Of a DNA stretch of 64,000 nt, positions 1,983-32,489 are shown piece after piece. Location of the stretch: the IMG/VR virus record IMGVR_UViG_3300027868_000008; one strand, written 5' to 3'. The position numbers were made by a program, and so were the translations under genes. The DNA is from a virus. Each line of letters begins with the position of its first letter. Position 1 is the first letter of the stretch. Below the pieces are notes generated by a model. That model saw only the letters and a program-made list of their open reading frames with translations. It was not told the origin of the DNA and ran no database searches.

Positions 1983-2495
1983 TCATGCCTCCTTAGCTGC
2001 AGCATTCAACTTGCGTTGCATATGCTTGCCGATCATCGAGCGATGGTGCTCATGGCCAGAGTAGTCCGGACCAACGAACAACTCAGATACCGCTTCGCAC
2101 GTCGACGCGCGCAGTGTCTTCAAGCAGTCCTCGCAGCCCTGCTTAACCGCCCGTGCCAACTTTTTCGCGTACGCGTCGGTGGCCATGATCTCTGCAGCCC
2201 GTTCACGCGCCTTCTCGGCGATGACGTCACGGATCTCTGACCTGATTTCCCAGCTACCGATCGTCTTTACGATCGCCTCTTGTAGCAATGCGTCTCGCGT
2301 CTCGGTGTCAAGGCCTTCGAGTATCTGTGCTGCGATAGTATCCCGAACGGCTGACTTAATCTCCTCTGGTGTCATCTGTCTGCTTTCGCATGAGTTGATG
2401 TAGTTCGTACGCGGCGATTTCGGACGGGTGCTTGAAGAAGTCGGCAGGACGGAAGAGCGGCGCTTGCTGCTCTGGTGTTGCCTGCGACGCCGCAT
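1983..2495 (-). CDS. hypothetical protein (true start may be internal Met near 2376)
   Basis: ORF only; overlaps upstream ORF by about 140 nt. Confidence 0.3.
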   Translation of the reverse strand: MRRRRQHQSSKRRSSVLPTSSSTRPKSPRTNYINSCESRQMTPEEIKSAVRDTIAAQILEGLDTETRDALLQEAIVKTIGSWEIRSEIRDVIAEKARERAAEIMATDAYAKKLARAVKQGCEDCLKTLRASTCEAVSELFVGPDYSGHEHHRSMIGKHMQRKLNAAAKEA

Positions 2496-3420
2496 ATAGC
2501 TCGCCTAGCCACGTATAACGTAGGAACCTGATGAAGCGTTGCGACGCGCGCAGGTCTGCAATGACGGGATCTGGCCGCACATGCGGCTCCGCTAGCCCGT
2601 AACCCATACGCATACCCCATATACGCCACGCAAAATCGCACGGCGCTACGCCGGTACGGTCGCTGCCTTCCACCGGTATCGGTGTAGTGATCTCAAACAG
2701 TTTGCGTACTGCGCTCTGCTGTTTGAGGTCCTTCCAGCTATGTAGCACCAGCTTGCAGCGGCGGTGGTGGCGCCATTGCGGAAAGTTCGCCACGGTAACG
2801 CCTGCCTGCGTCTTTGGGTTCAGCCCCATTGCCGCTTCCAGCTTACACGAGCGATCCGGTGCGCAGCCATCGATGTACCAGCGCGGATCCAGGATCTGTG
2901 CGAGTAGCCCCGCCACCATCGTCGGGTTGATTCCCTTGATGAACGATAGATGGTGCCACACCGGATGCGCACGCAATAGTTGCTGTGCACGCGGGCTGAG
3001 CTTGCTGTCGGGCCGGGCGTGTCGGCATTGTTGTACCTCTGCGGCCAGCGCATATGCGTGGTAATCCGCAGCTACGACCTCGTGGAGGCCACCCTGGCTT
3101 GGCGCCAAGTGGCATATTGGCATGTAGAGCAGTAACGCCTCCGGGCGCTGCCGCTCTTTTACCGTCTTACAGACGAGTGGCGTAACAACCTTGACGCTTT
3201 GCAACTGGCCATCACGTTTCAGCTCGTATAGCTTCGTGATCAACCTGGCATTGCTGTGGGTACCCACAACATGTACACACGTTGCTGCGCAGAAAATAGG
3301 CCCCTCAAAGAAGTCGTGTATCGCCATCTTGGTGGGCTGCGCATAGCCATCGTGGTCCACGTACCATACGTGGTCGTTGGCAACGTGCATGCGTAGGGCT
3401 AGCGTGTCCGTTGTTGTCAT
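2356..3420 (-). CDS. hypothetical protein
   Basis: 354 aa ORF in operon context, 4-nt overlap with sbcC-like stop; no motif recognised. Confidence 0.5.
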   Translation of the reverse strand: MTTTDTLALRMHVANDHVWYVDHDGYAQPTKMAIHDFFEGPIFCAATCVHVVGTHSNARLITKLYELKRDGQLQSVKVVTPLVCKTVKERQRPEALLLYMPICHLAPSQGGLHEVVAADYHAYALAAEVQQCRHARPDSKLSPRAQQLLRAHPVWHHLSFIKGINPTMVAGLLAQILDPRWYIDGCAPDRSCKLEAAMGLNPKTQAGVTVANFPQWRHHRRCKLVLHSWKDLKQQSAVRKLFEITTPIPVEGSDRTGVAPCDFAWRIWGMRMGYGLAEPHVRPDPVIADLRASQRFIRFLRYTWLGELYAASQATPEQQAPLFRPADFFKHPSEIAAYELHQLMRKQTDDTRGD

Positions 3421-5558
3421 ATCGTCGGCAACGTGATCGTATGGTCAAACAAGTGTTGGATCCTTGGTTCATGTGTTACGAATAGCACCTGCAAGCCGCG
3501 CTCCGCTGATAATTCACGAAGGCGGGCGATGGCTGTTGGAAGGCAGCCCAGATTGTGCTCATCCAGGCCTGCCGTAGGTTCGTCCAGCACAAGGACGCCG
3601 ACCTGCCCAGCAAAAGTTGAGTTCACGGTGACCCGGAAGGCCATAGCCAGCACAATGCGTTCGCCCACAGATAGGCGCTTGTCTGGCTGCACCCTAACAC
3701 CGTCCAAGAAGCGCGCGATGAAGCCTAGACTCTCATCCATCTCCACACGGAACGGTGCCTCGAACGTCTCCAGTACGCTGTTCACCTCGTCGAGCATTGT
3801 CTCGATGTAGGTGTAGGACACCATACGTGGTGACTCATTACGATGGAATACCTGTCGTATGTTTTCCAGGTGTGCCACTGTTTCCCGTGTCCGCTCACCT
3901 TGCTGCGTAATGCGCTGGATGTCGTCCAGTTGCGCCTGCACAGTTGTTACGTTCGCCTCAGCAACAGCGTGTTGCTTTTGCAGCGCAAGCATGGCGGCAT
4001 AGCGCCGGCGTACCGTATCGCGCGCACGTTGTGCTGCCTCCGCGTTTGCCTTCGTATACGGTGGGCTCGTAACAAGCACTGCACGCGCCTCTTCCGTACG
4101 CGCTGCCAACTGTGTCAGTTCGCCCTCTGCCTCGGCTAGCTGTGTAGCATGCGTACTTGATTGTGTTTGCAGCTCAGTAAGTGCTGTGGCAAAACTGTCA
4201 CGTTCGTCAAGGCAGTTGCGCAACACTACACGATCAGTGTCTGGAAGTACCAGCTCAGCCAATGCGTTGCTACGTTGCTCGAGCTGTGCTTGCTCTGTCT
4301 CCCATGTATGCTGCTCTTGGCGGTATACCACCATATCCACCGCATATTGCTTACGTGCGTCGTCCCGTGTGCACAACGGGTCGCGTTCTTGCACGATAGT
4401 AGCTTGCTCGCTCAGCAGCGTTGTACGTCGTGCTTCTGCCTCTGCAAAATCTGGCATGCGCTGTCCGCACGTGGGGCAGTTATCGAGTGACTGCGACAGC
4501 GCACTGAGGGCCACGACCACGCGCGTATGCGCTTCCGTAAGCCAGTCCAATTGCTCCCGCTCGGCATCCGAGAGCGCCGCGCAGGGCTCCTGCGGTACAT
4601 CGACGCCGTTGGCCCATCGTTCGGTGTAGGCCTGTTGGTCCTGCGCAAACTGCTCACGCGTAGCCTTTGTTGCATCGTATGTGCGCCACTGCTGCAGCTT
4701 TCCTTCGGCATTACGTACATCGTCAGCCATAGCAGTTATCGCCAACGCGATGTCGCCGATGTCGGCCGTAAACCGACGAGCAGCTGCTCTTTGCGCAAGC
4801 ACATCATGCCTTTTGCTGCTTTCGGCTCCTGCTGCTTGCAAGACCGTCGCATTCGCCGCTGTGCGTTCGTCGTAGCCCCTGATAATGGCAAGCTGCTGAT
4901 CCATGTATTCGCTAGCGTCAACAACGTCGCGGTAGGCCAAGAGCTCGCCACTGAGGCGGGCGCCTGTCTCTGCGTGCTGCGCCAGTTGTTGACGCAGTTC
5001 ATCCGCATCCAACGTCGTGGTAGGCACCTCGATGTTGCTGAGGAACTCGCCCATTTGGCGCCAGACCTTCTCCGCCTGGTCGATACCAAACAGCGCAGCG
5101 AGTGCTGCAGCACGATCAGCAGGGCGCTGGTCGAACATCTCGTCGATCTTGCGCTGGCGAACGAAGACATAGTCTTGGATCTGGCGCTTAGTCGCGCCCA
5201 GGCGCCGCCACAGCTCCGCATTCATCTCATTGATGGATGATATCTCGGTGTCGCCGATGCATAAGAAATTGGAGCTGTTGTACTTGCCCACGGCCCGCCG
5301 TACGTAGATGATCGAACCGCCGTGCGATAGGTTTGTCTCCACGAACGACGGTGCATCGTCAGCAATGCCCTGGGTAATATCGTCAGCCTTGTTGCGATCG
5401 CCGCCGGCGTCGCCGGTAAGCAACAGCTGCAGGGCGCGCAGGAAATTTGTCTTTCCGCTGCCGTTCGGCCCCACGATGAGGTTGAGGCCTGGTTCCAGCG
5501 TGACATACAAGTCACGGTGCTGGCAAAAGTTCGTCAGTCGGACATCGCCGATGATCAT
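3417..5558 (-). CDS. SbcC/Rad50-like SMC-family ATPase (DNA double-strand break repair)
   Basis: N-terminal Walker A GPNGSGKT, long coiled coils, CPTCGQ zinc-hook-like motif, C-terminal VLVLDEPTAGLD Walker B/D-loop. Confidence 0.85.
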   Translation of the reverse strand: MIIGDVRLTNFCQHRDLYVTLEPGLNLIVGPNGSGKTNFLRALQLLLTGDAGGDRNKADDITQGIADDAPSFVETNLSHGGSIIYVRRAVGKYNSSNFLCIGDTEISSINEMNAELWRRLGATKRQIQDYVFVRQRKIDEMFDQRPADRAAALAALFGIDQAEKVWRQMGEFLSNIEVPTTTLDADELRQQLAQHAETGARLSGELLAYRDVVDASEYMDQQLAIIRGYDERTAANATVLQAAGAESSKRHDVLAQRAAARRFTADIGDIALAITAMADDVRNAEGKLQQWRTYDATKATREQFAQDQQAYTERWANGVDVPQEPCAALSDAEREQLDWLTEAHTRVVVALSALSQSLDNCPTCGQRMPDFAEAEARRTTLLSEQATIVQERDPLCTRDDARKQYAVDMVVYRQEQHTWETEQAQLEQRSNALAELVLPDTDRVVLRNCLDERDSFATALTELQTQSSTHATQLAEAEGELTQLAARTEEARAVLVTSPPYTKANAEAAQRARDTVRRRYAAMLALQKQHAVAEANVTTVQAQLDDIQRITQQGERTRETVAHLENIRQVFHRNESPRMVSYTYIETMLDEVNSVLETFEAPFRVEMDESLGFIARFLDGVRVQPDKRLSVGERIVLAMAFRVTVNSTFAGQVGVLVLDEPTAGLDEHNLGCLPTAIARLRELSAERGLQVLFVTHEPRIQHLFDHTITLPTI

Positions 5559-6400: not shown

Positions 6401-6991
6401 CTAGCGCTTGGCGCGGTTGGTACGTACGCCGCGCGGCTTACGTGCGGTAGGTGCAGCCTCAAGGAGCTCAAGGCTATTGGTGATCTCAGTCCAGAGTGTT
6501 TCCAGCTTGATGTGCGTAGGGCACAGCGCAATCTGATCTACAAACTTGTCTGTTTTCACCTGGAGGTCATGCAGCTGTTTGCCGATTGCATGCTCACGCG
6601 TAAGCAGCATCTCCTCATGCTTACACTGCGCACGCAGGACAGTACGTGCGCCGCCAGGGTAATTTGGGAAATCGGTAGAGTTGCGCGCATGATACGGTAG
6701 CGGCTCATCACGGGTATCGACATCAGGGGCTTTACGTCCAGTTGCGCGCTCCAGTAGTTTTCCTTCAATACTGTCAACCTTAGCGTTCGCAAACGCAACG
6801 TCGGTGCGTGCTTGCTCTAGTTTGCCCATCAGCTCGGCAAGGTCAAGCCGGTTCTCTGCTTGCTTCTGTGCCTTCGCTACGATATCGCGCTTCCATGTGG
6901 GGTTCGCGCCGTTAAGCCGGTCGCGTATCGCATGCGAGTGCTTCAGAAGTCGCGTCTTGAAGTGGTCCTTTTCGGTCTGGGTCAGGCCCAT
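6401..6991 (-). CDS. hypothetical protein
   Basis: 196 aa ORF; N-terminus overlaps sbcD-like C-terminus so true start probably internal. Confidence 0.4.
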   Translation of the reverse strand: MGLTQTEKDHFKTRLLKHSHAIRDRLNGANPTWKRDIVAKAQKQAENRLDLAELMGKLEQARTDVAFANAKVDSIEGKLLERATGRKAPDVDTRDEPLPYHARNSTDFPNYPGGARTVLRAQCKHEEMLLTREHAIGKQLHDLQVKTDKFVDQIALCPTHIKLETLWTEITNSLELLEAAPTARKPRGVRTNRAKR

Positions 6992-8081
6992 TCATGTGTT
7001 CCTTGAAGATGTCAGTAATCTCTGTTTGAATGTCACGAGTGTTTGCCAGGCGTACCGCATCGTCGCGTACTTGTACGTCATCGGCATAGAACTCAGTAAT
7101 ACATCCTGTAAGGCCAGCACGCAATACGGCGTGCTGTCGCCGTGTTGTGTCGGCAGCCTGCTGCGTTGTCGCTACAGGGATTGGAGACAGGAACAGGTGA
7201 GCAGCCTGGCCCACTGTGGTCTCGAGGCGCTTTTTGGCCTCTGGTAAGTCAGCAAGGTACCACACGCGCAGCAGGTTGGTGGCTATGTTAGCGGGCACAC
7301 CTTGCTGCGGTCTACGCGCAGGATGATCCAGCCAGCCCGCAATGAATGCGTCTAGTTCCTCTTGGGAGTGCAACCGTGCCTGGTAGTAACCACGGCTACG
7401 GAGCGCCAACCGTGTGATCGACAGATCGTCGTTCAGGATGAGTGCGTACTTGTCCGGCGGCTCGCCGATATTCTGCATGCAGAGCGGTCCCGGGGACACG
7501 ATCATCTGTCGGCCCTCTTTCTTCACAAGCGTCTTGTGAAAATCACCGGTGATGATCATCTCGACGCTGTCGGGTACGTCTGCAAACCACGCGTCCCCGC
7601 GGTCATGCCCCAGAAAGTCCTTCCAGACTTGGTGCGTGGCCAGCACATTGGCTTCTGCCGGGACACCCTCAAGCGCCTCACGCACAAGCGCCGGTATCTG
7701 GTAGTCCAGAAAGTAGATCACAATGTCAGGGGCCAAACGGAGGAAATCGCCGTGCATATGCGTCGGCCAGCTGTGCAGTGCCGATAACAGCGTAGGCACT
7801 GCTCGCTCGTGTTGACCCTGTATGAAATGCACAGCACGCTCTTGCCGCTGGCACGTGTCCAGGGCTTGCCGCATCGTCAATAGGGCATCAGACTGCTGCA
7901 GCTTCTGCTCGAACAGGTCGCCGAGCAGCAGTATATCGCGCAGATCGTGCTCCTCAGCGAGGGCTAGGACCTGCTGGATACCCCATTCAGTGTCACCCCA
8001 CAGGGCATCGCGGCGGTACCACACACGATCGAGTTTGCGTACGTGCCAATCGGCACTGATGAGGGCTAGCGGTTCTGGCAT
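6912..8081 (-). CDS. SbcD/Mre11-like nuclease (calcineurin-like metallophosphoesterase)
   Basis: Motifs ISADWHV, LLLGDLF, ITGDFH; start chosen at MPEPLALISADWH; directly upstream of the Rad50/SbcC-like gene. Confidence 0.8.
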   Translation of the reverse strand: MPEPLALISADWHVRKLDRVWYRRDALWGDTEWGIQQVLALAEEHDLRDILLLGDLFEQKLQQSDALLTMRQALDTCQRQERAVHFIQGQHERAVPTLLSALHSWPTHMHGDFLRLAPDIVIYFLDYQIPALVREALEGVPAEANVLATHQVWKDFLGHDRGDAWFADVPDSVEMIITGDFHKTLVKKEGRQMIVSPGPLCMQNIGEPPDKYALILNDDLSITRLALRSRGYYQARLHSQEELDAFIAGWLDHPARRPQQGVPANIATNLLRVWYLADLPEAKKRLETTVGQAAHLFLSPIPVATTQQAADTTRRQHAVLRAGLTGCITEFYADDVQVRDDAVRLANTRDIQTEITDIFKEHMNGPDPDRKGPLQDATSEALACDTRPA

Positions 8082-8103
8082 GATTTTGTTCCCATGAACA
8101 AGA

Positions 8104-8469
8104 TTAGAAGGTCTCAAGCATGCGCGTAAATGCTGCCAGCGAGAGCTTCGGATCATCGAAATCGATGACGTTGGGATCCGTGATCTTACGCGGTGCGATC
8201 TGGCCTGGCACGTACGCCAAGACGGTTATGCGTCTGTCTAACAGCATAACCTTTAGCCCCTCTGAAAACGAGTCACGCATGTCAATGAGCCGTCGTGCTT
8301 TCTCCATCACAGCGTCGCTGGGGAGCTTGTCCCAGAAACCGCCGCCAAGCGCTGACTGCGCTGCAGCATTTTCTGCCCCATGCAAAGTCATTGCAATGGG
8401 CATCGCCTGCTGGTCAAGCTCCAGCGCATCTGCATGCATCTGGGCAAAATGGTGTGCGCCCATTATCAA
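8104..8469 (-). CDS. hypothetical protein
   Basis: 121 aa ORF. Confidence 0.4.
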   Translation of the reverse strand: MIMGAHHFAQMHADALELDQQAMPIAMTLHGAENAAAQSALGGGFWDKLPSDAVMEKARRLIDMRDSFSEGLKVMLLDRRITVLAYVPGQIAPRKITDPNVIDFDDPKLSLAAFTRMLETF

Positions 8470-8496: not shown

Positions 8497-8850
8497 CTAG
8501 CAGCGCTGCGCACGCATTGCGCCAGCAATTGCCGTCGTGAGTTGTCGTTTCGCCGCTACGGCAAGTTTCTGTGCCTGTGCCGTACTGCCACAACGGACAG
8601 ATTTCGGTGTTCCGATGACTTGGCCGCGGCCGGAAGCAGGCCAGTAATCCGCAATATGCATAGCACCGAGATAGAATTGCCAGTGTCGAAATGCTTTTAC
8701 TGGAAGCAGCTCCGAGGCGGGATCGGTCTGAACGATATGAATCCGCTCAAACGCCAGCTCCGTCATCAGGGACGGCAGCTCCCGTTGAGCTGTCGCCAGA
8801 CGCTGGTGACGGAGTAGCTTCTTCGACGTCGACATTGTGTGGTTGGTCAT
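8497..8850 (-). CDS. hypothetical protein
   Basis: 117 aa ORF, overlaps hldE-like C-terminus. Confidence 0.3.
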   Translation of the reverse strand: MTNHTMSTSKKLLRHQRLATAQRELPSLMTELAFERIHIVQTDPASELLPVKAFRHWQFYLGAMHIADYWPASGRGQVIGTPKSVRCGSTAQAQKLAVAAKRQLTTAIAGAMRAQRC

Positions 8851-10300
8851 AGAGCACGGCTGACGTCGACGTATCGTGTTCGAGCGTCGTGATCAGCACC
8901 TTGCCTCCCCACCCTTCTACCGCCTCGCGCCCTTGTACGATCTTGTCAGCGTACTCTGGGCCTTTGACGAGAAGATCAGGCCGTAGTTGCCGGATCTCCG
9001 GGACCGGTGTATCGCCGTCGAACGGCAGCACCGCATCCACAGCAGGCTGCGCAGCCAGTGCTGCAGCCCGGATACTGTAGGGCTGTAGTGGCGTCCGCTT
9101 GATGCGGGTGGCAGATTTGTCGGTATTCAGCAGTACGCACAGGAAGTCGCACTGCGCACGTGCCTGCCTGAGCATCGAGATATGCCCAGGGTGGAGCACA
9201 TCAAAAACGCCGTTAGCGATACCAAATGTCTGGCCAGCAACAATCAGGGACCGGCGCAGCAGCGGTATTGATACGGGGTCTACTTGCTTCGCGGGTAGAT
9301 GCGCTCTTGAGGACGCGCAATGAATTGCGTGCAAACTGACTGGCTGCGCGCCGATCTGCTCAACAGCAAGCGCACCGGCAATGTTTGCAAACCGCATAAC
9401 CACTTCCGGCGGCATATCCGCAGCTACCCCATACGCTACGGCCGCTGCAACAGTGTCGCCCGCGCCACAGGTATCCAACTCATGTGCGGGTACAGCGGGG
9501 CAGTCAGTAGTAGTACCGTCAGAAGAGGCCCGGATTATGCCACCGCTTCCGAGCGTGACAAACAAGTGCGTGATGTTGTACTTAGCGCGCACCCATGCCG
9601 CAACTGCTTTCATAGTTGTGAGCGCTGAAGACGCTGGTGCAGCCGCCATGAGCTCCAAAGCATTTGGCGTTACAGCATAGGCGCCAGCGTAGTATTCCAT
9701 ATGCGACGGCGTTGGGTCGACAACCACGGGAATCTCGTGTTCCCGTGCAAACGTCATGATGAACTCTAACACAGCCGGCGTACACACGCCCTTGTTGTAG
9801 TCTGAGATCAGGATGACCAGCGGCGTGACTTCATCAAAACACTGACGCAGACGCATCAGCATGGGTTGCGACATGTCGCTGGTAGGCGGGCGCTCATGAT
9901 CATAGCGCGCCACCAACCGGTGATTCGCGTAGACACGGTGCTTGATTGGCGTTGTATACGCCGCTTCTACCGCAACATAGCGCGTAACACCCCGGCCCGC
10001 AGCCGGCTTGTCGAGGTACACGCGGCTGGCGTCGTCCTCGCCGACAACGCTAACAAAGGCTGTTGGCATTGCCAGGTAGGCTAGGCTATCCGCAGCGTTA
10101 GCCGCGCCGCCCGCGCCAACAAACTCGCGCTGGATCATCGTAACGGGTACAGGCGCCGTTTGGTCGAGCCCGCGGATGTTGCCGACGTGGTAGTGGTCCA
10201 GTATGACTGGTCCTACAACTACGGCACGCTGGTTCTTGCCAGGCTGTACGTCCGGCTGTGCCGCGTCTTCTGCTGGATTCGTCATTGAGTCGTCTTTCAC
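8747..10300 (-). CDS. hldE: bifunctional sugar kinase/nucleotidyltransferase, HldE (RfaE)-like: D-beta-D-heptose 7-phosphate kinase plus heptose 1-phosphate adenylyltransferase
   Basis: N-terminal pfkB carbohydrate kinase with DTCGAGDT signature; C-terminal cytidylyltransferase-like domain with GVFDVLHPGHISML (HxGH) motif. Confidence 0.75.
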   Translation of the reverse strand: MKDDSMTNPAEDAAQPDVQPGKNQRAVVVGPVILDHYHVGNIRGLDQTAPVPVTMIQREFVGAGGAANAADSLAYLAMPTAFVSVVGEDDASRVYLDKPAAGRGVTRYVAVEAAYTTPIKHRVYANHRLVARYDHERPPTSDMSQPMLMRLRQCFDEVTPLVILISDYNKGVCTPAVLEFIMTFAREHEIPVVVDPTPSHMEYYAGAYAVTPNALELMAAAPASSALTTMKAVAAWVRAKYNITHLFVTLGSGGIIRASSDGTTTDCPAVPAHELDTCGAGDTVAAAVAYGVAADMPPEVVMRFANIAGALAVEQIGAQPVSLHAIHCASSRAHLPAKQVDPVSIPLLRRSLIVAGQTFGIANGVFDVLHPGHISMLRQARAQCDFLCVLLNTDKSATRIKRTPLQPYSIRAAALAAQPAVDAVLPFDGDTPVPEIRQLRPDLLVKGPEYADKIVQGREAVEGWGGKVLITTLEHDTSTSAVLYDQPHNVDVEEATPSPASGDSSTGAAVPDDGAGV

Positions 10301-10302: not shown

Positions 10303-10989
10303 CTAGCGACGTTGCGGTGAGGGTGGGACTAAGCGGAGCACCTTGAAGGTACTATCAGGATAGCGAAACATGAAGTCCTCGTCCAATGTACGACACGGTT
10401 GGAGCGTTGGGTTCGGGACCGTTGGATGCACGCCGTCTGGGATGATCACGAATGGATCCAGATACGGTCCGCCGTTCTCGGGGCTGTTCCATGTCATCGC
10501 AATGGCACCAATGGCGCCGTCGGCAAAGATGTGATACCAGCCGCAAAGGATCTGGCCGTTCTCTGGTATCGTGTCATTCCGTCCTCGCCGGGTCGGGTCG
10601 TCGAGAAGGCCTTTAACAGCAGTCCACTCGTCTATCGGCAGCACCAGCCTGGCAGTATCGTAGCCCGCTTGCTCGTGGATCTTGCCGTCAGACGGTAGCT
10701 GTACCAGCCGCTGCAATGACGCCTTAGCAAGGCTACGGTCGAAGAAGCCCTCGAGCTCGGCACATTGGCCCGTGTAGGGCGTTTGCGCAGCCTCGGGTAC
10801 CTTCTGCGCAGCGGGCGCTGTCGACCGCGCTTCAAGCATTGCTTCCACGTAGTAGCCCATGAATTTGTCGAATTGCGCGCCAGCATGGTCCTGGATAAAG
10901 ATGAGCAAGATATCGCGCTGCTGCTCTACCGTTAGGTCAAACTGCCCCGCAATATCGCGAAGGCGTGCAGCAAGTGGTGATTCAGCCAC
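10303..10989 (-). CDS. hypothetical protein
   Basis: 228 aa ORF in operon. Confidence 0.5.
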   Translation of the reverse strand: MAESPLAARLRDIAGQFDLTVEQQRDILLIFIQDHAGAQFDKFMGYYVEAMLEARSTAPAAQKVPEAAQTPYTGQCAELEGFFDRSLAKASLQRLVQLPSDGKIHEQAGYDTARLVLPIDEWTAVKGLLDDPTRRGRNDTIPENGQILCGWYHIFADGAIGAIAMTWNSPENGGPYLDPFVIIPDGVHPTVPNPTLQPCRTLDEDFMFRYPDSTFKVLRLVPPSPQRR

Positions 10990-11839
10990 GGATTCCTCCG
11001 AAGGATGATAGAAACTTGATCCGGCGTGTTACGTTCAAGTACGCGGCCATGATGTACGGTTCTGCGGTCAGCCACAGCGGCCGGTACTTGAACGCACGGC
11101 CAACAAGCCATGCCAGAGTGAAATCGGTAGGAGCGGTGCGCACGACGTAGGGCCCAGGCAGCTCTGCCTCCCACGCTGGTGGCATCACTGCCACACAACT
11201 GTGCATGGAATACCAGCAGCCATTGCTGCCATCTTCGCTCGTGTATTCGCACGTCCTTGGTGCAAGACCATACAGGTAGAAACCACCGAGTGTTCCACTC
11301 AAGCGTTTCCGACGAAAAGCCGGCGGTACTGCAGCATGTGCTGCCAACACAGGTGTGAGTGTGCCTGCAAGACCGCCAGCGGAATCGAGGTAGAGGCCTG
11401 TCCTGTTGTCGGCCATGTGTCCCTGATAATGCCTATAACTCACGACGCGGACGGCAGGACCGCATTCTGCAAGTAGCTGCCGTAGGCGTGTATAGAGCCC
11501 TGCGATCTTCCGCGCATAGCAGAAGGGGCAGATGCTCAGCGTACACGGCCGCGTCTTCGGCGTGACGTGTACGCTACACGGGGGACAGTTTCGCGCATAT
11601 GCGTGCTTCGTACTGGCGATTGCTGCCCAGCCGCCGTCCAGTAGTTCAGCACATCGTCCTTGCCAACGCCTACGAATGTACTTTATGCGAGACACGAGGT
11701 CAGCATCAGCAACCGTGCTGTTGCGACACAACGGGCTCAGCACGCAGTAGTCCTCGACGCGCATCGTTGGCGACGTTCGTTTGGTGGCGTAGGTGAGGTC
11801 GATTGTGCGCATGAAAAGCACGTCGGGGCCCGGAACCAT
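10982..11839 (-). CDS. hypothetical protein (Cys-rich)
   Basis: 285 aa ORF. Confidence 0.45.
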   Translation of the reverse strand: MVPGPDVLFMRTIDLTYATKRTSPTMRVEDYCVLSPLCRNSTVADADLVSRIKYIRRRWQGRCAELLDGGWAAIASTKHAYARNCPPCSVHVTPKTRPCTLSICPFCYARKIAGLYTRLRQLLAECGPAVRVVSYRHYQGHMADNRTGLYLDSAGGLAGTLTPVLAAHAAVPPAFRRKRLSGTLGGFYLYGLAPRTCEYTSEDGSNGCWYSMHSCVAVMPPAWEAELPGPYVVRTAPTDFTLAWLVGRAFKYRPLWLTAEPYIMAAYLNVTRRIKFLSSFGGIRG

Positions 11840-13213: not shown

Positions 13214-13386
13214 CCCTAGACTCTCTAGTCTGCCCCATTTGACATTGGGGGCAAACCGGGGTCAGTTTCGGTAGTCTCGACCTCGAGTTGTGACTCAAGA
13301 TCACGACGTGCATCAGAGCACGCACCACGAATGAGTAGGCACCCGAGGACGATTGCTACGATGCAGAGCCAAGCTTCTTTACTCAT
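13214..13386 (-). CDS. small protein with N-terminal signal/lipoprotein-like hydrophobic segment
   Basis: about 56 aa MSKEAWLCIVAIVLGCLLIRGACS...; ATG overlaps upstream stop (TGATGA); below ORF-track length cutoff. Confidence 0.3.
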
Positions 13387-13889
13387 CAGACCTTGTAGGG
13401 GTTACGTGATCCACGAAGCGCCAGGTCATCTCGAGTCATCTCGTAAATCGTGAACTTGGCACACTCGTATGTGATCGGCAGGTCCATTACGATGCGACCC
13501 TGCCATGTGCCGTCTGGGCGGTAGCCCAGCCGTGCCGTATCGCGCCGTACTGTGATGTAGGCGACCCCTGCGGGACGCTGCAGCCTTTCGAAGATACTGG
13601 CTAGAACCTCTAGACGCGTACTTCGATCGGGGATGACGCAAAGCACGTACGTGCACAGCACAACGTCAAAGCGAGTATGCGGCCGCTGCCACGGCGGACC
13701 GTAGTGCGGATCGTAGCCCTCGATATCGATGCTGCGATTGAACAGGTGCTTCACGTCGCCGCCGTAACCGCACCCGTAGTCGAGTACGGTTTGCGTCCTG
13801 TTGATCAGCCCCCGCCCGTACAGCCATCGTGCTGGTGCGGATAGTTTGGCGCGTTTGATGGCACTCCGGTACGTCATGTCGATCGGCAA
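13386..13889 (-). CDS. class I SAM-dependent methyltransferase
   Basis: Motif I VLDYGCGYGGD; 167 aa; target unknown. Confidence 0.7.
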   Translation of the reverse strand: MPIDMTYRSAIKRAKLSAPARWLYGRGLINRTQTVLDYGCGYGGDVKHLFNRSIDIEGYDPHYGPPWQRPHTRFDVVLCTYVLCVIPDRSTRLEVLASIFERLQRPAGVAYITVRRDTARLGYRPDGTWQGRIVMDLPITYECAKFTIYEMTRDDLALRGSRNPYKV

Positions 13890-15969: not shown

Positions 15970-17067
15970 GTGGTGAGCAAGGATAACCCCCTGGAGGAGT
16001 TGGCGGGGCTCCAGCGCGTAGCTGACCTGTCTGACGACGACAAGATTCGGGAGATCCGTCGGCTTGAGTCCAGGCTGGCCAAGGCCAACATTGCCCGTAA
16101 GAACGCAGTAGCCAAGCACAAACAAGCAGAAGCAGATCTGCAGCTCTCGGCAGACCGCGAAGAGTTGCTGCTGGCTACGCAGGACCCAGTAGAGATCGCC
16201 AAGTTCGAGCGATCGCGTATGCGCAAAGGCCGCGGTAAGGCCTCTGCGATCATCTGTGTCAACGATTGGCACATCGAAGAGACCGTCGAAGCGTCCGTGG
16301 TCGACAACTGTAAGTTCAATCTGCGGATCGCCGAAAAGCGCATCAACAACACCTGGGATAAGGCTGAGTGGTTGCTAGACATGCTGCGCAGCATGGCCTC
16401 AATCAAGGAGGTTATCCTCTGGGCCGGCGGCGACATGATCAGCGGCTACATTCATCCTGAGTTGCAGGAGAACAACAGCCTGGGCCCCGCGGAGGCAATC
16501 CAGCTCGTACAAGAGCATCTGGTGCACGGCCTGAACCGCTTCATGAAAGACCCAAAGACGGACTCGGTGGTGTTTGTCACCAGCTTCGGTAACCACGGAC
16601 GTACGACGCGGAAGCGCCGGATCTCCACTGGTTACAAGTCTCATTGGGAATGGGCAGCGTACCACAATGTGGCCAAGCGGTGCCAGGACAATTCCAAATT
16701 CCGGGCCAAAATCGCGGACGGCTACTTCAACAAGCTGCCCGTACAGGGCCACCAGGTCCGCTTCCACCACGGCGACGATATCCGCTACAAGAACGGTGTC
16801 GGTGGCGTGCATGTGCCGCTGCGGCGTGCCATCGGCAACTGGAACCTCAACGAGGGGCTAGCCGCCTTTGACGTGCTTGGGCACTTCCACCAGTACGGCG
16901 ACGACCCGAACTACGTGCTGTGCGGATCGCTGATGGGCTACAACGCGTACGCCCAGAGCATCGCTGCGCCGATGCAGTCGCCATCGCAGACGATCATCGG
17001 GGTCGACTACGAGCACGGCAAGTGGATCACGATGCCCGTCTTCTGCGGAGAATCCCACACCATATGA
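15970..17067 (+). CDS. calcineurin-like metallophosphoesterase with N-terminal coiled coil
   Basis: Motifs GGDMISG, GNHG, GHFHQ; GTG start after GAAAGGAG (track ORF begins 15880). Confidence 0.65.
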   Translation: MVSKDNPLEELAGLQRVADLSDDDKIREIRRLESRLAKANIARKNAVAKHKQAEADLQLSADREELLLATQDPVEIAKFERSRMRKGRGKASAIICVNDWHIEETVEASVVDNCKFNLRIAEKRINNTWDKAEWLLDMLRSMASIKEVILWAGGDMISGYIHPELQENNSLGPAEAIQLVQEHLVHGLNRFMKDPKTDSVVFVTSFGNHGRTTRKRRISTGYKSHWEWAAYHNVAKRCQDNSKFRAKIADGYFNKLPVQGHQVRFHHGDDIRYKNGVGGVHVPLRRAIGNWNLNEGLAAFDVLGHFHQYGDDPNYVLCGSLMGYNAYAQSIAAPMQSPSQTIIGVDYEHGKWITMPVFCGESHTI

Positions 17068-17696
17068 CGTTCCATCGCATCTACGTAGACATGGATGGGG
17101 TGCTATGCGACCTGGTAAAGGCAATCCTTACCGAGCACGGCCGCATGGATCTCTATAATCGCATGCCGCATCGCAAAGTCACCGAATCGATTGACTGGGA
17201 CCGCCACGAGACATGGCTCCCAACGCTTGTAGATGGGCCTACCTTCTGGGCTACGCTGGACCGGTATCCATGGACTGATGAGATCATGCACTTTGCTCGC
17301 GACACCGGTGCCGAAGTGTATGTGCTCACGCGTCCGTTGGACTTGTCACTGTTTGACGCAACCGATATCGGCTACTGCGTCCATGGCAAGATGGCATGGC
17401 TACGCAGGCAATTCGGCGCTGACTTCAAGGACGTAGTGTTCACAGCCGAGAAGCACCTACTGTCACAACCAGGCGTGCTACTCATCGACGATGATGAGCA
17501 GTACATCGAACGCTTTGAGGCTGCAGGTGGTCGCCAGATCATCTTCCCGCAGAGCTACAACAAGTTTCGAGAACGCCTTGGCGACCGCATGGCGGCCGTC
17601 AGGGAGCAGTACAAGCACCTGCGAGGAAACGATGAAGATTGCGATTTGCGGTCCCGGCCAGTGCGGCAAGGACGCGGCGTCCCAGTGGCTAGCTGA
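17064..17696 (+). CDS. HAD-superfamily 5'(3')-deoxyribonucleotidase-like hydrolase
   Basis: N-terminal YVDMDGVLCD (DxDGVL) motif; ATGA overlap with upstream gene. Confidence 0.7.
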   Translation: MTFHRIYVDMDGVLCDLVKAILTEHGRMDLYNRMPHRKVTESIDWDRHETWLPTLVDGPTFWATLDRYPWTDEIMHFARDTGAEVYVLTRPLDLSLFDATDIGYCVHGKMAWLRRQFGADFKDVVFTAEKHLLSQPGVLLIDDDEQYIERFEAAGGRQIIFPQSYNKFRERLGDRMAAVREQYKHLRGNDEDCDLRSRPVRQGRGVPVAS

Positions 17697-18120
17697 CAAT
17701 ACGACACTGTGCTATCATGATAGCACAAGTGAGGCTGCGGCCGGGGTCTGTTTTGACGCCCTGCGCTACAAATACGCCTACGCAGACGCCAAAGAGGCCT
17801 TCGACGACCGCCGGAATCACCGGGAAGAATGGGCGAAGATCATCTGGGATTACAATCGCCCTGACGGTCTCACCCTCTATCGTGGTATGCTAGAGACCAA
17901 TGACATCCTGAACGGTATCCGTCGCGCTGGCGAGCTGCAAGCACTGCTGGACGCAGGCATGCTCGACCTGACGCTCTGGATTGCCCGCGATGTCCCGCGT
18001 GACCCGTCATGTGAGTTGGTAGCTAGCGACTGCGATATCACTGTCCCGAACGACGGGACGCTGGATGCGTTGTTCACCCGGCTTTCCCGTTTCGCTGCCG
18101 TAACACACATGTTGAGGTGA
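17632..18120 (+). CDS. small P-loop NTPase, putative (deoxy)nucleoside monophosphate kinase
   Basis: MKIAICGPGQCGKD Walker A at N-terminus; GAGGA RBS; about 162 aa. Confidence 0.5.
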   Translation: MKIAICGPGQCGKDAASQWLADNTTLCYHDSTSEAAAGVCFDALRYKYAYADAKEAFDDRRNHREEWAKIIWDYNRPDGLTLYRGMLETNDILNGIRRAGELQALLDAGMLDLTLWIARDVPRDPSCELVASDCDITVPNDGTLDALFTRLSRFAAVTHMLR

Positions 18121-21763: not shown

Positions 21764-22102
21764 CTATGGCTCCTCGTTGTCAGTGTCGTCAGCCAGCACT
21801 ATACTGCTTGGCTCGATGAATGGGTGTTCTGTCTCAGACCACACGGGGTGCGCATTAAGCCACTCCGTTAGCGTACGCGTATAGTCGTATGCAACACCGG
21901 CGGTTGTAATTACCACCCACCCCCTGAATCCGTCGAAAAAGATCGGCCCCAGCGGCATCAGCCCGTTGAAGATCGGATGGTAGAACCACTGTCCTTCCTG
22001 TGGCTGGTACGTTCGCGGGAGCTCGAGCGTCGTCTCGACGATTTTGATCTCACGGCCGTGCAACGCTACAGGCATTTGTACGCCCACCGTGTGCGTTTTC
22101 AT
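21764..22102 (-). CDS. hypothetical protein
   Basis: 112 aa ORF, 2-nt gap to ligase. Confidence 0.45.
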   Translation of the reverse strand: MKTHTVGVQMPVALHGREIKIVETTLELPRTYQPQEGQWFYHPIFNGLMPLGPIFFDGFRGWVVITTAGVAYDYTRTLTEWLNAHPVWSETEHPFIEPSSIVLADDTDNEEP

Positions 22103-23931
22103 GTGGTAACCTCTGCTGCGGGTTCTGCAACAATTGCTGTTGTCCGCGGAATGAGTGCCGCTTCTTGCGGCAGCATCAGCGCTGGATGGTCATCAACGAA
22201 GGTATGTGCAGTCCGTGCTTCGACCGCAGCGGCGCGTGCTTCTGCTAGTTGGTCGTCAGTAAGCGTGTTCTCTGCGCTTGCGTATGCTGCCATTACGCGT
22301 GAGCACTCATACGTGAAGTGTGCTACCGCAAAATCGTTGAATGCCAGGTCGTGGTACCGCTTATAGAATGCAGCGGAATGCACATGTCGCTGACGCGTTG
22401 ACGGGCGGAGATGGCAGTACTCATGCATGAGTAGCGCAGCGTATTTCTGCCACGCGATTGGGCCCGCGCCCAAACGCCGTATGGTATCCCTGTTAAGCGC
22501 TATGACTGACCTTCCGTCAGTCCACGACTCGTTAGGGCCCAGCCCTGCCATAATTTCGCGCATCTCCGGATTCGGCGGACCGAAACGGCCTGTACCGTAT
22601 AGATACTTACGCTTCTCGCGCAGTACCCTGATCACAATGCGCTCAAACGGCATTAGCAGGTCGTCTGATACAAGTGAGCACTTCTTGTCAAGCACGGACT
22701 CGAGGTCGCGCCACGCCACGTAGCTAAGACGCTTCGAGTGCCACTGGCCCAGTATGCGGTTGACTACTGCTACCAGCTCTTGCCCGCTCGCAACGTTGAA
22801 GCGTTCCAGCATCCCGCGATTGAGCACGCAGGCTAGCTTATAGCTTTGGAGACGTGCAACGGTGCCGCCCGAATAGGTGCCTGCATAGGTACCCGCTGGT
22901 GGCAGAGTTACGCGGCCATTTGCCACCTTAAACACTGCGCGCACATTTGGGTTAACGCGTCGTCCGTGGTACATGAAGACGCCCGCGTTCTCAAACTGCC
23001 TGAGTGTCAGCTCCTTGTCGCGTGCCTGATTGACAAGGCGGACACGATCTGCCTCGGTGAGACGACGGCGACGATTTGCAGACACGCGTGCAGCGCGCTC
23101 ACGTTGTTCGCGGTCGCGTGTATCGCGCGTATTGGTATCCCGCTCAACGACATGGGCTGCAATAGCTTTCTTGATCACCTGCCACGTCGGACAGTTCTCC
23201 ATCACGTCATTGCGTGCAAAATTGACCAGGATCGGCTTCTTCGTTACAACGTCGCCGCCGATGCCCAAGTGGAACCGGGTGAAATCCAGTACCTTGATGC
23301 CCTGATTATAGACAACCAGGTTTCCGTATTCCTTGAAACGGATGTCGCCCTCGGGCAGCTCAAGATCCCAGTTGATCTTTGTTGGATCCTTCTGCAGCTG
23401 CAGGTTATTTAGCGTGACAGGTACCCGTGGAAAGCGGATAGCCTGCCGAAGGTTATCGCATGCGCCCCGAAGATCGGTGTGGGACAGTGGCTTGTAGAGC
23501 GCTACGCGTATCTCGCAGCCATCGTGATGCGGCAGTCCGCTGCGCAGGACGTAATCCAGTCCGTCCGTGTTGATGTCGATGTCCATCGCGAAGGTACCGG
23601 AGCGCCACGCGTTTACGCCGTAGGCAAAGAGCTGGCCGCGCCCCATACGAAAGGCCCCAAACTCCTTCTGCTCCCGATCGTCGTGCGGCTGCCCAAAGAC
23701 CTCGAAGTAGTGCTCGACGTCTTCTTGCGAGCGAAATCCCTTCCCGTCGTCCCGGATAGTCAGGCTATCCTGATCGAGCAAGATTGTACATTGTGAGGCA
23801 CCGGCATCGATGGAGTTCATAACGCCCTCGATGATGCCCCTCCACAGGCTGCCGGCCTGGCGCTTGATTACGCTAACCAGCAGCGCGCTGTGTGTCTGAA
23901 AACTACGCCGCTCACTCGTCGGTGTCGCCAT
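22099..23931 (-). CDS. GHKL-family ATPase (HATPase_c_3 / MORC-Hsp90-like) with C-terminal HExxH-containing region
   Basis: N-terminal IIEGVMNSIDAGAS...TIRDDGKGF...GAFRMGRGQLFAYG Bergerat-fold motifs; C-terminal LLMHEYCHL. Confidence 0.65.
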   Translation of the reverse strand: MATPTSERRSFQTHSALLVSVIKRQAGSLWRGIIEGVMNSIDAGASQCTILLDQDSLTIRDDGKGFRSQEDVEHYFEVFGQPHDDREQKEFGAFRMGRGQLFAYGVNAWRSGTFAMDIDINTDGLDYVLRSGLPHHDGCEIRVALYKPLSHTDLRGACDNLRQAIRFPRVPVTLNNLQLQKDPTKINWDLELPEGDIRFKEYGNLVVYNQGIKVLDFTRFHLGIGGDVVTKKPILVNFARNDVMENCPTWQVIKKAIAAHVVERDTNTRDTRDREQRERAARVSANRRRRLTEADRVRLVNQARDKELTLRQFENAGVFMYHGRRVNPNVRAVFKVANGRVTLPPAGTYAGTYSGGTVARLQSYKLACVLNRGMLERFNVASGQELVAVVNRILGQWHSKRLSYVAWRDLESVLDKKCSLVSDDLLMPFERIVIRVLREKRKYLYGTGRFGPPNPEMREIMAGLGPNESWTDGRSVIALNRDTIRRLGAGPIAWQKYAALLMHEYCHLRPSTRQRHVHSAAFYKRYHDLAFNDFAVAHFTYECSRVMAAYASAENTLTDDQLAEARAAAVEARTAHTFVDDHPALMLPQEAALIPRTTAIVAEPAAEVTT

Positions 23932-26210: not shown

Positions 26211-28091
26211 ATGGACCAGCTGCTCTTCGACGAACCGCATGCGCTAGAGCAAGCGCACCAGCAAATACGGCCACTTCTCGCGGCAAAAGACGCAGATGAC
26301 GTGTCTGCTGGCGACCGCATAGCCGGCCTCACCTCCATGATGGAGAGCGGGCGCATGGATACGCTGGCGCAGGCATTGCCGCTGCTGCTGAACCTCAAAG
26401 GTGAGCCATATTCGCTGATAAATCACTTCCCGTTCGAAGAGATTTTCAGGTTCCGCATGCCGTCATCGCTGACATACAAGACCGGACGCCAGGTCTCCAA
26501 GTCGACGTCACTAGCCGCGCACGGCATCGCCACGTCGATATCCATCCCAGATCTTACTACGCTGTATGTGATGCCGCTGTTCGAGCAAGTGCGCCGCTTC
26601 AGCTCAATGTTCGTGGCACCGTTCATTGACCAGAGCCCGGTACGGCATCTGTGGTCCGGAACCGACACGGTGAACAGCGTACTGCATCGTAGCTTCCGCA
26701 ACCGCTCGAAGATGCTCTTCTCCTTCGCCTTCCTCAATGCGGATCGTGTCCGCGGTATTTCCGCAGACAAGGTCGCCATTGATGAAGTCCAGGATATGAA
26801 TCGCGAGCACCTGCCGATCATCCGTGAGACGATGTCGGCCTCCAAGTGGGCGCTACGGCAGTTCACTGGCACACCCAAGACGCTGGACAATACGCTCGAG
26901 GCGCTGTGGACAGAGTCATCGCAGGCAGAGTGGTTTATCCCGTGTATGCACTGCACCACGCATGGCAGCCCAACATGGAACATCCCGACTATGGAGTTCC
27001 ATCTTGAGAAGATCATCGGACCGTACCACAGCGGGATCAGCGAGGAACACCCCGCGACGATCTGCTTCAAGTGCGGTAAGCCGATATCGCCGCGGATGGG
27101 GCGCTGGGTGCACCGCTACCCAAAACGCGTGTGGGGGTCAGCTGGCTATCACGTGCCGCAGATTATCATGCCGCTGCACTACGCGAAGCCAGACAAGTGG
27201 GCCGAGCTGCTGGCCAAGATGGCCGGTAAAGGTAACACGCCGCTGAATGTTTTCTATAACGAAGTGTTGGGCGAATCGTACGATACAGCTGCCAAGATCG
27301 TCACGCTGACGGAAATCGAAGCAGTGTCGAACCTAGGCCCCAACGACTTCTCAGTGGCCAAAGGCAAGTGTGGTAAGTACCAGATGCGCGTGCTGGGTGT
27401 AGACTGGGGTGGCGGTGGCGAGAAGAAGCTGAGCTTCACGACAGTGGCACTACTTGGCGTCAAACACGACGGCAAGATCGACGTGTTGTGGGGCAAGCGG
27501 CTACTCACGCCGCATGACCATCTACGCGAGGCGCGCGAGATCAAGCAGTACTGGGACGCCTTCCGCCCGACCATGATCTGCCATGACTACACGGGTGCCG
27601 GCTCACTTCGTGAGACGTTCCTGATTCAGTCCGGCGTACCTAGCCGCTGCGTAATGCCATGTATGTACGTACGCTCGGCCAAGCAGCAGCCGTGCTACCA
27701 TGTGGCTCCAACAGTAGATCATCCGCGCTCGCACTACCGCGTGGACAAGAGCCGCTCGTTATTGCTGACATGCGCAATGATCAAGTGTAAGCAGCTGCGG
27801 TTCTTTGACTCCGACTACAGCAGCCAGGAAGACCCCGGACTGATCCGTGACTTCCTGGCGCTCGTCGAAGACAAGGTGACCACGATGGCTGCTGGCGAGA
27901 TCTACCGTATTGACCGGCAGGCAGGCTTCACCGACGACTTTGCACAGGCTGTGAACCTGGGCTGCGTCGGTATCTGGTACCGCACCAAGAAATGGCCACG
28001 GCTGCACGAGATTGCTGCGATCTCTGATGAGCAGCTACGCGCATCTGTGCCGCTGTCTGACTCCGAATGGGACGACGAGCTCATTCAGTAG
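26211..28091 (+). CDS. terL: terminase large subunit (ATPase plus nuclease)
   Basis: Walker A-like GRQVSKST, Walker B VAIDEVQDM, C-terminal RNaseH-like nuclease with VLGVDWGGGG and DYTGAG. Confidence 0.8.
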   Translation: MDQLLFDEPHALEQAHQQIRPLLAAKDADDVSAGDRIAGLTSMMESGRMDTLAQALPLLLNLKGEPYSLINHFPFEEIFRFRMPSSLTYKTGRQVSKSTSLAAHGIATSISIPDLTTLYVMPLFEQVRRFSSMFVAPFIDQSPVRHLWSGTDTVNSVLHRSFRNRSKMLFSFAFLNADRVRGISADKVAIDEVQDMNREHLPIIRETMSASKWALRQFTGTPKTLDNTLEALWTESSQAEWFIPCMHCTTHGSPTWNIPTMEFHLEKIIGPYHSGISEEHPATICFKCGKPISPRMGRWVHRYPKRVWGSAGYHVPQIIMPLHYAKPDKWAELLAKMAGKGNTPLNVFYNEVLGESYDTAAKIVTLTEIEAVSNLGPNDFSVAKGKCGKYQMRVLGVDWGGGGEKKLSFTTVALLGVKHDGKIDVLWGKRLLTPHDHLREAREIKQYWDAFRPTMICHDYTGAGSLRETFLIQSGVPSRCVMPCMYVRSAKQQPCYHVAPTVDHPRSHYRVDKSRSLLLTCAMIKCKQLRFFDSDYSSQEDPGLIRDFLALVEDKVTTMAAGEIYRIDRQAGFTDDFAQAVNLGCVGIWYRTKKWPRLHEIAAISDEQLRASVPLSDSEWDDELIQ

Positions 28092-29351: not shown

Positions 29352-29412
29352 TCTTTCTCCTTGTCACTGAGTTCCTGTTGCAGCTTGACGCGACGCAAGA
29401 GCTTTATTCGAG

Positions 29413-29497
29413 CGGAACGGGTAGGATTTGAACCTACGTGACTTTCGTCAACTTGTTTTCAAGACAAGGGCCTTTAGCCAGACTCGGCCACCGTTCC
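29413..29497 (-). tRNA. tRNA-Ser (anticodon TGA), type II with long variable arm
   Basis: Hand fold: acceptor GGAACGG/CCGTTCC, anticodon loop CTTGAAA, variable hairpin, T-arm GTAGGTTCAAATCCTAC. Confidence 0.7.
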
Positions 29498-29499
29498 GT

Positions 29500-29620
29500 C
29501 GGCGTGTCGATCAGTGAGTAATCTCGAACCCGACCGACACGCCTTTTGTTGGCGTGCGAAGTTCTCGGCATCCGTTGTTGGCGTCACGGATGAACGACGC
29601 CTATGGTTGCTTCGCACGCC
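29500..29620 (-). ncRNA. structured spacer between tRNA-Ser and tRNA-Val (nested hairpins; possible degenerate tRNA or processing element)
   Basis: GGCGTGTCG..CGACACGCC and GGCGTGCGAAG..CTTCGCACGCC stems; TTCGAGA T-loop-like. Confidence 0.3.
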
Positions 29621-29623
29621 AGT

Positions 29624-29697
29624 AGGCGAGGAGGGACTTGAACCCACGACCGTCCGGATGTAAGCCGGAAGCTCTGCCAGCTGAGCTACTCGCCTAT
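29624..29697 (-). tRNA. tRNA-Val (anticodon TAC)
   Basis: D-arm GCTCAGCTGGCAGAGC, anticodon loop CTTACAT, T-loop TTCAAGT. Confidence 0.6.
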
Positions 29698-29704
29698 CCT
29701 AGAG

Positions 29705-29777
29705 TGGTACGGGGTGGAGTTGAACCGCCGACACCTGGATTTTCAATCCAGTGCTCTACCTGCTGAGCTACCGCACC
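29705..29777 (-). tRNA. tRNA-Phe (anticodon GAA)
   Basis: Acceptor GGTGCGG/CCGTACC, D-arm GCTCAGCAGGTAGAGC, anticodon loop TTGAAAA, T-loop TTCAACT. Confidence 0.7.
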
Positions 29778-30355: not shown

Positions 30356-30417
30356 ACTTTGCTCCTTACCCCAAGCATAGCATGTTTAGGGTACGAAGAA
30401 AAGAGCAAGAAATTAAG

Positions 30418-30489
30418 CGAGCCATAGAGGAGTCGAACCCCTTCTTGCAGATCCGTAATCTGCCGTGCGATCCATCACACTCATAGCCC
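30418..30489 (-). tRNA. tRNA-Arg (anticodon ACG)
   Basis: Acceptor GGGCTAT/ATGGCTC (two G.U), anticodon loop TTACGGA, T-loop TTCGACT. Confidence 0.55.
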
Positions 30490-30491
30490 AC

Positions 30492-30563
30492 AACCCGGCC
30501 AAGACTTGAACTTGGAACCTCAGGGACCAAAACCCTGCGCTCTGCCAATTGAGCTACCGGGTA
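30492..30563 (-). tRNA. tRNA-Gln (anticodon TTG)
   Basis: D-arm GCTCAATTGGCAGAGC, anticodon stem CAGGG/CCCTG loop TTTTGGT, T-arm CCAAGTTCAAGTCTTGG. Confidence 0.7.
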
Positions 30564-30570
30564 CCGTTGT

Positions 30571-32299: not shown

Positions 32300-32410
32300 C
32301 TCCTTTAGTCATTCAAGTAGGTAAGTGGCGCTCTCAGCCCTCTCTGGTACACACCGCCGCTCCTCAACGCCATCGTCCAGCCCAAGCGGCCCCGTGATCT
32401 GGATTCCCAA

Positions 32411-32485: not shown

Positions 32486-32489
32486 GTAG

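Follow-up and report, generated by a model that had tools for sequence, protein, structure and literature searches.

The subject of this study is the 64,000-nucleotide record IMGVR_UViG_3300027868_000008 of the IMG/VR virus collection (this whole stretch is called the window below) and, within it, a gene encoding a protein that resembles HldE, in which a sugar kinase is joined to a nucleotidyltransferase. The initial annotation had placed this gene in an open reading frame (ORF) at 8747-10300 with a product of 517 aa, and the span was confirmed, together with the motifs quoted from it, DTCGAGDT and GVFDVLHPGHISML, both of which were found in the frame. The ORF lies on the minus strand, which had gone unstated, and its 517 residues are counted from a GTG at 10300. 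The public call of a 100% identical protein (P0001) begins at the ATG at 10285, which is probably the start of the gene and gives a product of 512 aa; residues are numbered from this ATG throughout. The composition of the gene is native, with a GC content (59.2%) close to that of the window (58.2%). The window is phage DNA: it encodes a large terminase of the gpA type, an NAD-dependent ligase, SbcC and SbcD, an SF2 helicase, an endonuclease VII and a GP88-family protein. The terminase is at most 31% identical to those of Vibrio phage D181, Salmonella phage Arash and SPO1-like phages.

The domain searches recovered both halves of the proposed fusion. Pfam matched PfkB to residues 26-320 (E = 1.4e-30) and CTP_transf_like to residues 361-456 (E = 7e-13), and the best of 18,950 NCBIfam models was HldE, which aligned at full length (E = 8e-79, model positions 10-468 of 475), bearing out the HldE/RfaE architecture. 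The kinase half scored 204.5 bits against TIGR02198 (rfaE_dom_I), compared with 73 for ribokinase and 18 for nucleoside kinase, and the nucleotidyltransferase half scored 125.6 bits against TIGR02199 (rfaE_dom_II), whereas other cytidylyltransferase-type models reached at most 47 (GCT 39, PPAT/CoaD 26). Thus, the kinase is closer to the heptose kinase subgroup than to ribokinase or adenosine kinase, and the nucleotidyltransferase is closer to the heptose adenylyltransferases than to GCT, CoaD or FAD synthetase. The alignment with Escherichia coli HldE covers 460 aa from end to end at 32% identity (E = 1e-57), with the same two domains in the same order and a similar linker. The closest solved structures were Burkholderia HldA (4e84, E = 1e-32) and HldC (5x9q, E = 5.7e-22), which carry the same two activities as separate proteins, whereas the phage protein has them fused. 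The NCBIfam equivalog cut-offs were all missed by a wide margin (NF008454, 265.4 versus 521; TIGR02198, 204.5 versus 345; TIGR02199, 125.6 versus 181.5), so that NCBI rules would not call the protein HldE.

The protein belongs to a lineage that was found on phage contigs alone. A search of 5.8 billion proteins returned 12 relatives at 36-48% identity, followed by hundreds of bacterial HldE sequences at approximately 35%, and the closest non-phage matches were from Alphaproteobacteria and Planctomycetes (35-38% identity). In a neighbour-joining tree, 15 phage sequences formed one clade with zero bacterial members, and the mean distance from phage to bacterial sequences was 1.53, about twice that among the bacterial sequences (0.71). 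The same separation was seen in an exhaustive search of 1.84 billion representatives with a profile hidden Markov model of the clade, which gave approximately 11 clusters at 414-843 bits and then a bacterial plateau at no more than 378 bits. Among 50,697 deposited phage records, no full-length homologue was found, barring a mis-filed Salmonella contig and a 5.5-kb fragment, and megablast found no near-identical DNA in the same records. The cyanophages S-CAM1 and S-T4 carry a stand-alone nucleotidyltransferase that matches that half alone (32-33% identity).

The catalytic residues known from the bacterial enzymes are in place. The kinase half carries GG at 59-60, NxxE as TPNALE (206-211) and GAGD with the catalytic Asp277, which aligns with the catalytic Asp of HldA, and the nucleotidyltransferase half carries HPGH at 365-368. 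GG, NxxE, GAGD and HxGH are all retained in the alignment with E. coli HldE. G59, G274, G276, D277, H365, G367 and H368 are invariant in the 13 clade members aligned, N208 and E211 are retained in 11-12 of them, and NxxE is whole in 11; L018 and L022 also keep the catalytic motifs, except that L022 has GA in place of GG. A docking study proposed five HldC motifs for binding of heptose-1-phosphate (PMC7993394), and their counterparts in the phage protein, which shares most of them with E. coli HldE, read ANG, NTD, K-R, GDTP and KGP. In these motifs, the key residues Asn, Asp, Lys, Thr and Pro are kept and Gly residues are changed, with N358, N387/D389, T426/P427 and K441/G442 among the retained positions. 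These motifs do not fix the identity of the sugar, since HldC itself takes beta-glucose-1-phosphate as a substrate (PMC7993394). The retention of the catalytic motifs across the clade suggests that both halves are catalytically competent and under selection.

Other motifs of the kinase have been replaced. They were compared with E. coli HldE, Burkholderia HldA and 107 bacterial homologues, and the bacterial forms are retained in both reference proteins and in 93-100% of the homologues; HldA, for example, keeps GDVMLD and RISPEAP. In the phage protein the corresponding segments include GPVILD, LDQTAP and DPTP. The change from (I/L)SPEAP to (L/I/T)DQTAP is present in all clade members compared, with D41 and T43 in 13 of 13. 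DPKG has become DPxP in all but P0012 (DPNV), and GDxMLD has become GPxxxD in 12 of the 13. The core clade further shows GA for GKxGT and K-RxP for KG..RP, the latter in a loop two residues shorter, and GxSTT is replaced by Dx(S/H)T in the 13 aligned members and L018 but not in L022. Among the new forms, GAQP and DPxP resemble ribokinase. A change of R110 to Tyr was also considered as a marker of specificity and dropped, as that position is occupied by Leu in HldA and by His in E. coli HldE. The 15 clade members end in a tail of 10-34 aa, compared with a median of 9 aa in the bacterial homologues, most of which lack such an acidic C-terminus. We refer to this phage lineage as the DQT subfamily; in the clade-profile search, its signature was carried by approximately 20 of the best 150 cluster representatives. 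The replaced motifs suggest that the sugar pocket of the subfamily may be altered. The initial annotation had the protein making ADP-heptose; its family and architecture stand, whereas this product is plausible at most, given the scores below the curated cut-offs and a phage-only clade in which conserved kinase motifs are replaced.

The gene occupies the same place in ten distinct related contigs (L001, L003, L010, L011, L012, L013, L018, L020, L022 and L029), which are 11-226 kb long, have a GC content of 51-59% and were recovered from metagenomes of hypersaline, marine and freshwater sites. The conserved order begins with two genes that we call gpB (approximately 276 aa) and gpA (approximately 228 aa), followed by the HldE-like gene and one or two small ORFs, and continues with SbcD, a protein of approximately 216 aa, SbcC, a protein of approximately 346 aa, a helicase and a DnaB-like ATPase. 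The neighbourhood of recombination and repair genes described at the outset was thus recovered (Table 1). In the window, gpB, gpA and the HldE-like gene abut or overlap. Across contigs, the HldE-like proteins are 34-48% identical, within the range of the other block genes (SbcD 43-55%, SbcC 42-52%), which fits vertical descent. Judging from these comparisons, the gene appears to have descended vertically at a fixed position within an uncultured family of large phages and not to be a stray metabolic acquisition.

Table 1. Features of the window around the HldE-like gene and elsewhere.
Feature	Position	Strand	Remarks
SbcC/Rad50-like ATPase	3417-5558	-	AAA_23 and SMC_N matches
SbcD/Mre11-like phosphoesterase	6912-8156	-	Metallophos_2, E = 5e-4; orthologues 48-55% identical in all relatives; conserved downstream partner of the block
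Small gene	8497-8850	-	117 aa; directly downstream, out of frame with the HldE-like gene, whose 3' end it overlaps
HldE-like bifunctional gene	8747-10285	-	512 aa; mechanical ORF extends to 10300
Acidic low-complexity C-terminal tail	8750-8851	-	residues 479-512; overlaps start of next gene
Cytidylyltransferase-type nucleotidyltransferase domain	8852-9220	-	residues ~356-478
PfkB-type sugar(-phosphate) kinase domain	9341-10225	-	residues ~21-315
gpA	10303-10989	-	228 aa; directly upstream of the HldE-like gene in 9/10 relatives
gpB	10982-11812	-	~276 aa; first gene of the conserved triad
S-adenosylmethionine (SAM) methyltransferase	13386-13889		~3 kb from the HldE-like gene
ORFan family, 332 aa	13874-14872	-	conserved in most relatives
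NT5C-type phosphatase	17067-17696	+	Pfam NT5C, 3.7e-11; phrog_2643, 1.4e-16
dNMP-kinase-like ORF	17491-18120	+	adjoins the NT5C-type gene
GHKL ATPase protein	22099-23931	-	610 aa; HATPase_c_3, 5.6e-7
Large terminase	26211-28091		gpA-type
16 tRNA genes	29412-40168	-	~11 kb
tRNA call	30417-30507	-	four-base anticodon; overlaps tRNA-Gln
NeuB module with 932-aa ORF	40970-47235	-	sialic-acid genes at 40970-44313
GT29-like transferase	42707-43459	-	33 kb from the HldE-like gene

The two upstream genes are restricted to this phage family. In gpB, four Cys residues make up a zinc ribbon (NCPPC...C...CPFC), and there is a weak resemblance to the HUH/Rep fold. AlphaFold models were obtained for gpA and gpB with predicted local distance difference test scores of 81 and 77, respectively, and comparison of the gpA model gave no convincing fold match. 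In L029, the place of gpA is taken by an unrelated protein of 434 aa, and L022 has an inserted gene of 395 aa beside the HldE-like gene; these two inserts are unrelated to one another and to gpA, and neither has a Pfam or PHROG match. Downstream, orthologues of the small gene were found by tblastn in L001 and L003 (48% identity, E = 3e-28 and 8e-25). Its family is approximately 105-117 aa long, overlaps the HldE-like gene by approximately 80-100 nt and carries a DYWPASGR motif in the relatives, with no Pfam or PHROG match for the small gene. By these comparisons, the small ORF is a genuine conserved gene, one that is absent from the public gene calls for the identical contig L006. In most relatives, a CsrA homologue of 57-86 aa lies on the opposite strand just past the HldE-like gene (L001 11722-11898, L003 11713-11889, L011 11728-11910, L013 11716-11889 and L029 4283-4543), and no CsrA was found in the window, at that place or anywhere (tblastn, E > 0.8).

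Very probably, going by its sequence, the protein is an active HldE-family kinase/nucleotidyltransferase that makes a nucleotide-activated sugar. Its role is probably, though with less assurance, that of an active bifunctional enzyme of the DQT subfamily that serves phage-specific glycosylation with an activated sugar resembling ADP-heptose. In such a pathway, the PfkB domain would phosphorylate the anomeric hydroxyl of a sugar phosphate with ATP as the donor, a separate phosphatase would take off the distal phosphate, and the cytidylyltransferase-type domain would couple a nucleotide, most probably the AMP moiety of ATP, to the resulting sugar-1-phosphate. Candidate acceptors are the host envelope and virion proteins, with phage DNA as an improbable third. 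Vertical inheritance at one position of the block points to phage-specific glycosylation and not to a recent host-derived gene boosting lipopolysaccharide (LPS). Likewise, an old clade with altered motifs and a fixed place in a replication block speaks against a recently captured LPS helper gene and for a use specific to the phage.

Several observations weigh against this preferred reading. The scores of the protein are just 51-69% of the curated HldE cut-offs, and the changes of SPE to DQT, DPKG to DPxP, GT to GA and KG..RP to K-RxP replace kinase motifs that the bacterial enzymes compared conserve, so that the sugar may not be heptose. The distant relative L028 has a gpB-like gene, SbcD, SbcC and the helicase without the HldE-like gene, which indicates that the gene is dispensable for the function of the block. 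The translationally coupled upstream genes gpA and gpB do not appear, from their models, to be sugar enzymes (no glycosyltransferase, isomerase or phosphatase). Further, pathway partners were sought by Pfam scans of every non-overlapped window ORF of at least 150 aa and of the 10-kb flanks of the relatives, the window being about one third of genomes that are probably 150-226 kb long. As the initial annotation had noted for the vicinity of the gene, no GmhA (SIS), GmhB-type haloacid dehalogenase (HAD) phosphatase or GT9 heptosyltransferase was found in this space, nor was HldD, and the sole glycosyltransferase detected was the distant GT29-like protein of the sialic-acid module. Such partners may also come from the host. 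That module (NeuB, the GT29-like transferase and a CMP-sugar synthetase) and the SAM methyltransferase had also been cited as pointing to a second, independent sugar-nucleotide capability; both are present, and their link to the HldE-like gene is one of co-residence in the window only.

The protein departs from E. coli HldE in its three sub-cut-off scores, its acidic C-terminal tail and its kinase motifs (DQT for SPE, DPxP for DPKG, GA for GT, GP for GD in most members and the shortened KG..RP loop), and its gene lies in a replication block without gmhA, gmhB, hldD or waaC nearby. The phage precedent is the pathway for UDP-arabinose in DNA arabinosylation, formed by AfhE and AfhF (gp52:53/gp51 in RB69 and gp82/gp81 in DLP3), in which AfhE, a kinase and pyrophosphorylase, and the phosphatase AfhF follow a logic of isomerase, kinase, phosphatase and nucleotidyltransferase (PMC13326640). 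As with AfhE, the anomeric sugar-phosphate kinase and the nucleotidyltransferase are joined in one phage protein, whose gene lies among genes of nucleotide metabolism; in the Afh system a HAD phosphatase acts between the two steps. The folds are unrelated, however, and their order is opposite, since AfhE has an N-terminal NTP_transferase and a C-terminal kinase of the APH/protein-kinase-like type. The AfhE cluster moreover includes an arabinose-5-phosphate isomerase, a HAD phosphatase, a ThyA-like 5hoC synthase and GT-B transferases, none of which was found clustered with the phage HldE-like gene. AfhE would therefore be a functional analogue only, and it offers the closest working analogy.

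With respect to the phosphatase step, the NT5C-type protein was the only HAD phosphatase found in the scans of the window and the flanks. It has an intact DMDGV motif, is encoded approximately 7 kb from the HldE-like gene and is also present in L001, L010, L012 and L013, and its family is annotated as 5'(3')-deoxyribonucleotidase. It is the sole candidate within reach for the absent step and could conceivably perform it. A relationship to AfhF was considered and rejected, since tblastn returned 5'-deoxyribonucleotidase-type phage proteins alone. The public call cuts the adjoining deoxynucleoside monophosphate (dNMP)-kinase-like gene to 77 aa, whereas its orthologues are approximately 162 aa long. 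Together with NT5C and with NDK in the relatives, this gene hints, as circumstantial evidence, at a non-canonical nucleotide pool; sets of the nucleotidase, dNMP-kinase and NDK type are typical of phages with replaced bases.

The chief alternative to phage-specific glycosylation, which we consider unlikely, is an ordinary auxiliary metabolic gene, that is, a true ADP-heptose synthase from a Gram-negative host that boosts heptose in the LPS core or S-layer by way of the host GmhA and GmhB. HldE is indeed the top family in both domains, the catalytic motifs are intact, the nearest non-phage matches are the alphaproteobacterial and planctomycete enzymes, and a host-dependent gene would be expected to come without gmhA and gmhB on the phage, as was the case in the scans. 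HldE-annotated genes on viral metagenomic contigs, such as cave-pool contig 252, have also been interpreted earlier as LPS auxiliary genes (PMC11671562), although they share the family label by name only, having been mentioned without clade, motif or synteny analysis. However, the phage sequences form a single clade, whose distance from bacterial HldE is double the distance among the bacterial sequences themselves, so that any capture was not recent. The gene also holds its position in the replication block across contigs whose copies are 34-48% identical, whereas auxiliary metabolic genes usually lie in variable islands, and motifs conserved in the bacterial enzymes compared are replaced. The lack of a full-length homologue in the deposited phage records, apart from the mis-filed contig and the fragment mentioned above, tells against it as well.

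A sub-case of the preferred explanation, and a rather improbable one, is that the enzyme provides the sugar donor with which the phage glycosylates its own DNA. A transferase encoded elsewhere in the genome would then place an ADP-activated heptose-like sugar on a modified base. The block of replication, recombination and nucleotide-metabolism genes, with the NT5C nucleotidase, the dNMP-kinase-like gene and NDK in relatives, fits this possibility, as does the distant relationship of the terminase to those of SPO1/SP8-type phages, which carry hydroxymethyluracil DNA. A kinase/nucleotidyltransferase pair feeding DNA glycosylation has its precedent in AfhE/AfhF (PMC13326640). Conversely, adjacency to repair genes is weak evidence, and neither a thymidylate-synthase-like hydroxylase or hydroxymethylase nor a DNA glycosyltransferase was found in the window ORFs or in the flanks of the relatives. 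We also know of no ADP-sugar-dependent DNA glycosyltransferase. A more specific version, in which a DQT subfamily of changed specificity makes a heptose-like or unusual activated sugar for the phage's own DNA, with the NT5C-type HAD protein as the phosphatase and a transferase hidden among the ORFans, is slightly less probable again. Salvage of a nucleotide cofactor appears very improbable: for example, a riboside kinase with a nicotinamide mononucleotide adenylyltransferase (NMNAT) would restore NAD+ for the NAD-dependent ligase, which is encoded 9 kb off, or against NAD-depleting defences. This would agree with the ribokinase-like GAQP and DPxP motifs and with a weak PHROG match to nicotinamide-nucleotide adenylyltransferase (E = 4e-4), but that match covers 40 residues confined to the shared HxGH region, and no NMNAT model appeared among the NCBIfam matches of the protein. 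The scores of both rfaE domains (204 bits against 73 and 18 for ribokinase and nucleoside kinase; 126 bits for domain II) and the retained HldC-type sugar-1-phosphate motifs NSD, xxTP and KG also speak against a cofactor role.

HldE has so far been regarded as an enzyme of the bacterial envelope, and its viral copies have been dismissed as LPS helpers. Here, an uncultured family of large phages keeps an old, altered HldE at a fixed spot amid replication and repair genes, and an activated heptose-like sugar would thus seem to be required by these phages for a purpose of their own. Should the target be DNA or the virion, the enzyme would open a new donor pathway for phage glycosylation and anti-restriction chemistry, paralleling the recently solved UDP-arabinose route, and modification of the phage's own DNA would be the first DNA hypermodification fed by an ADP-sugar (or by heptose). 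For annotation pipelines, which now either label proteins of this subfamily HldE or give them no name, DQT together with DPxP provides a simple sequence marker that splits the subfamily from true HldE.

Several other features of these contigs were recorded. The 332-aa ORFan family, in which Cys, Asp and Asn residues are invariant and the C-terminal tail is rich in lysine, gave no match in Pfam, in PHROGs or in a profile search of the PDB. No model of a defence or anti-defence system gave a match. The GHKL protein, in which the ATPase domain is N-terminal and no other domain is recognisable, adjoins the NAD-dependent ligase gene. In the NeuB module, which also contains an RraA-like gene, the GT29-like sialyltransferase is unusual for a phage, and no relatives of the window NeuB were found in IMG/VR. 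The 932-aa ORF beside it has a weak PHROG match to DNA primase (E = 4e-4), which places the module among DNA-metabolism rather than structural genes. The tRNA genes include four for tRNA-Leu. Finally, in L028 a LAGLIDADG domain, probably an intein or homing endonuclease, interrupts the large subunit of ribonucleotide reductase (2215-4824).

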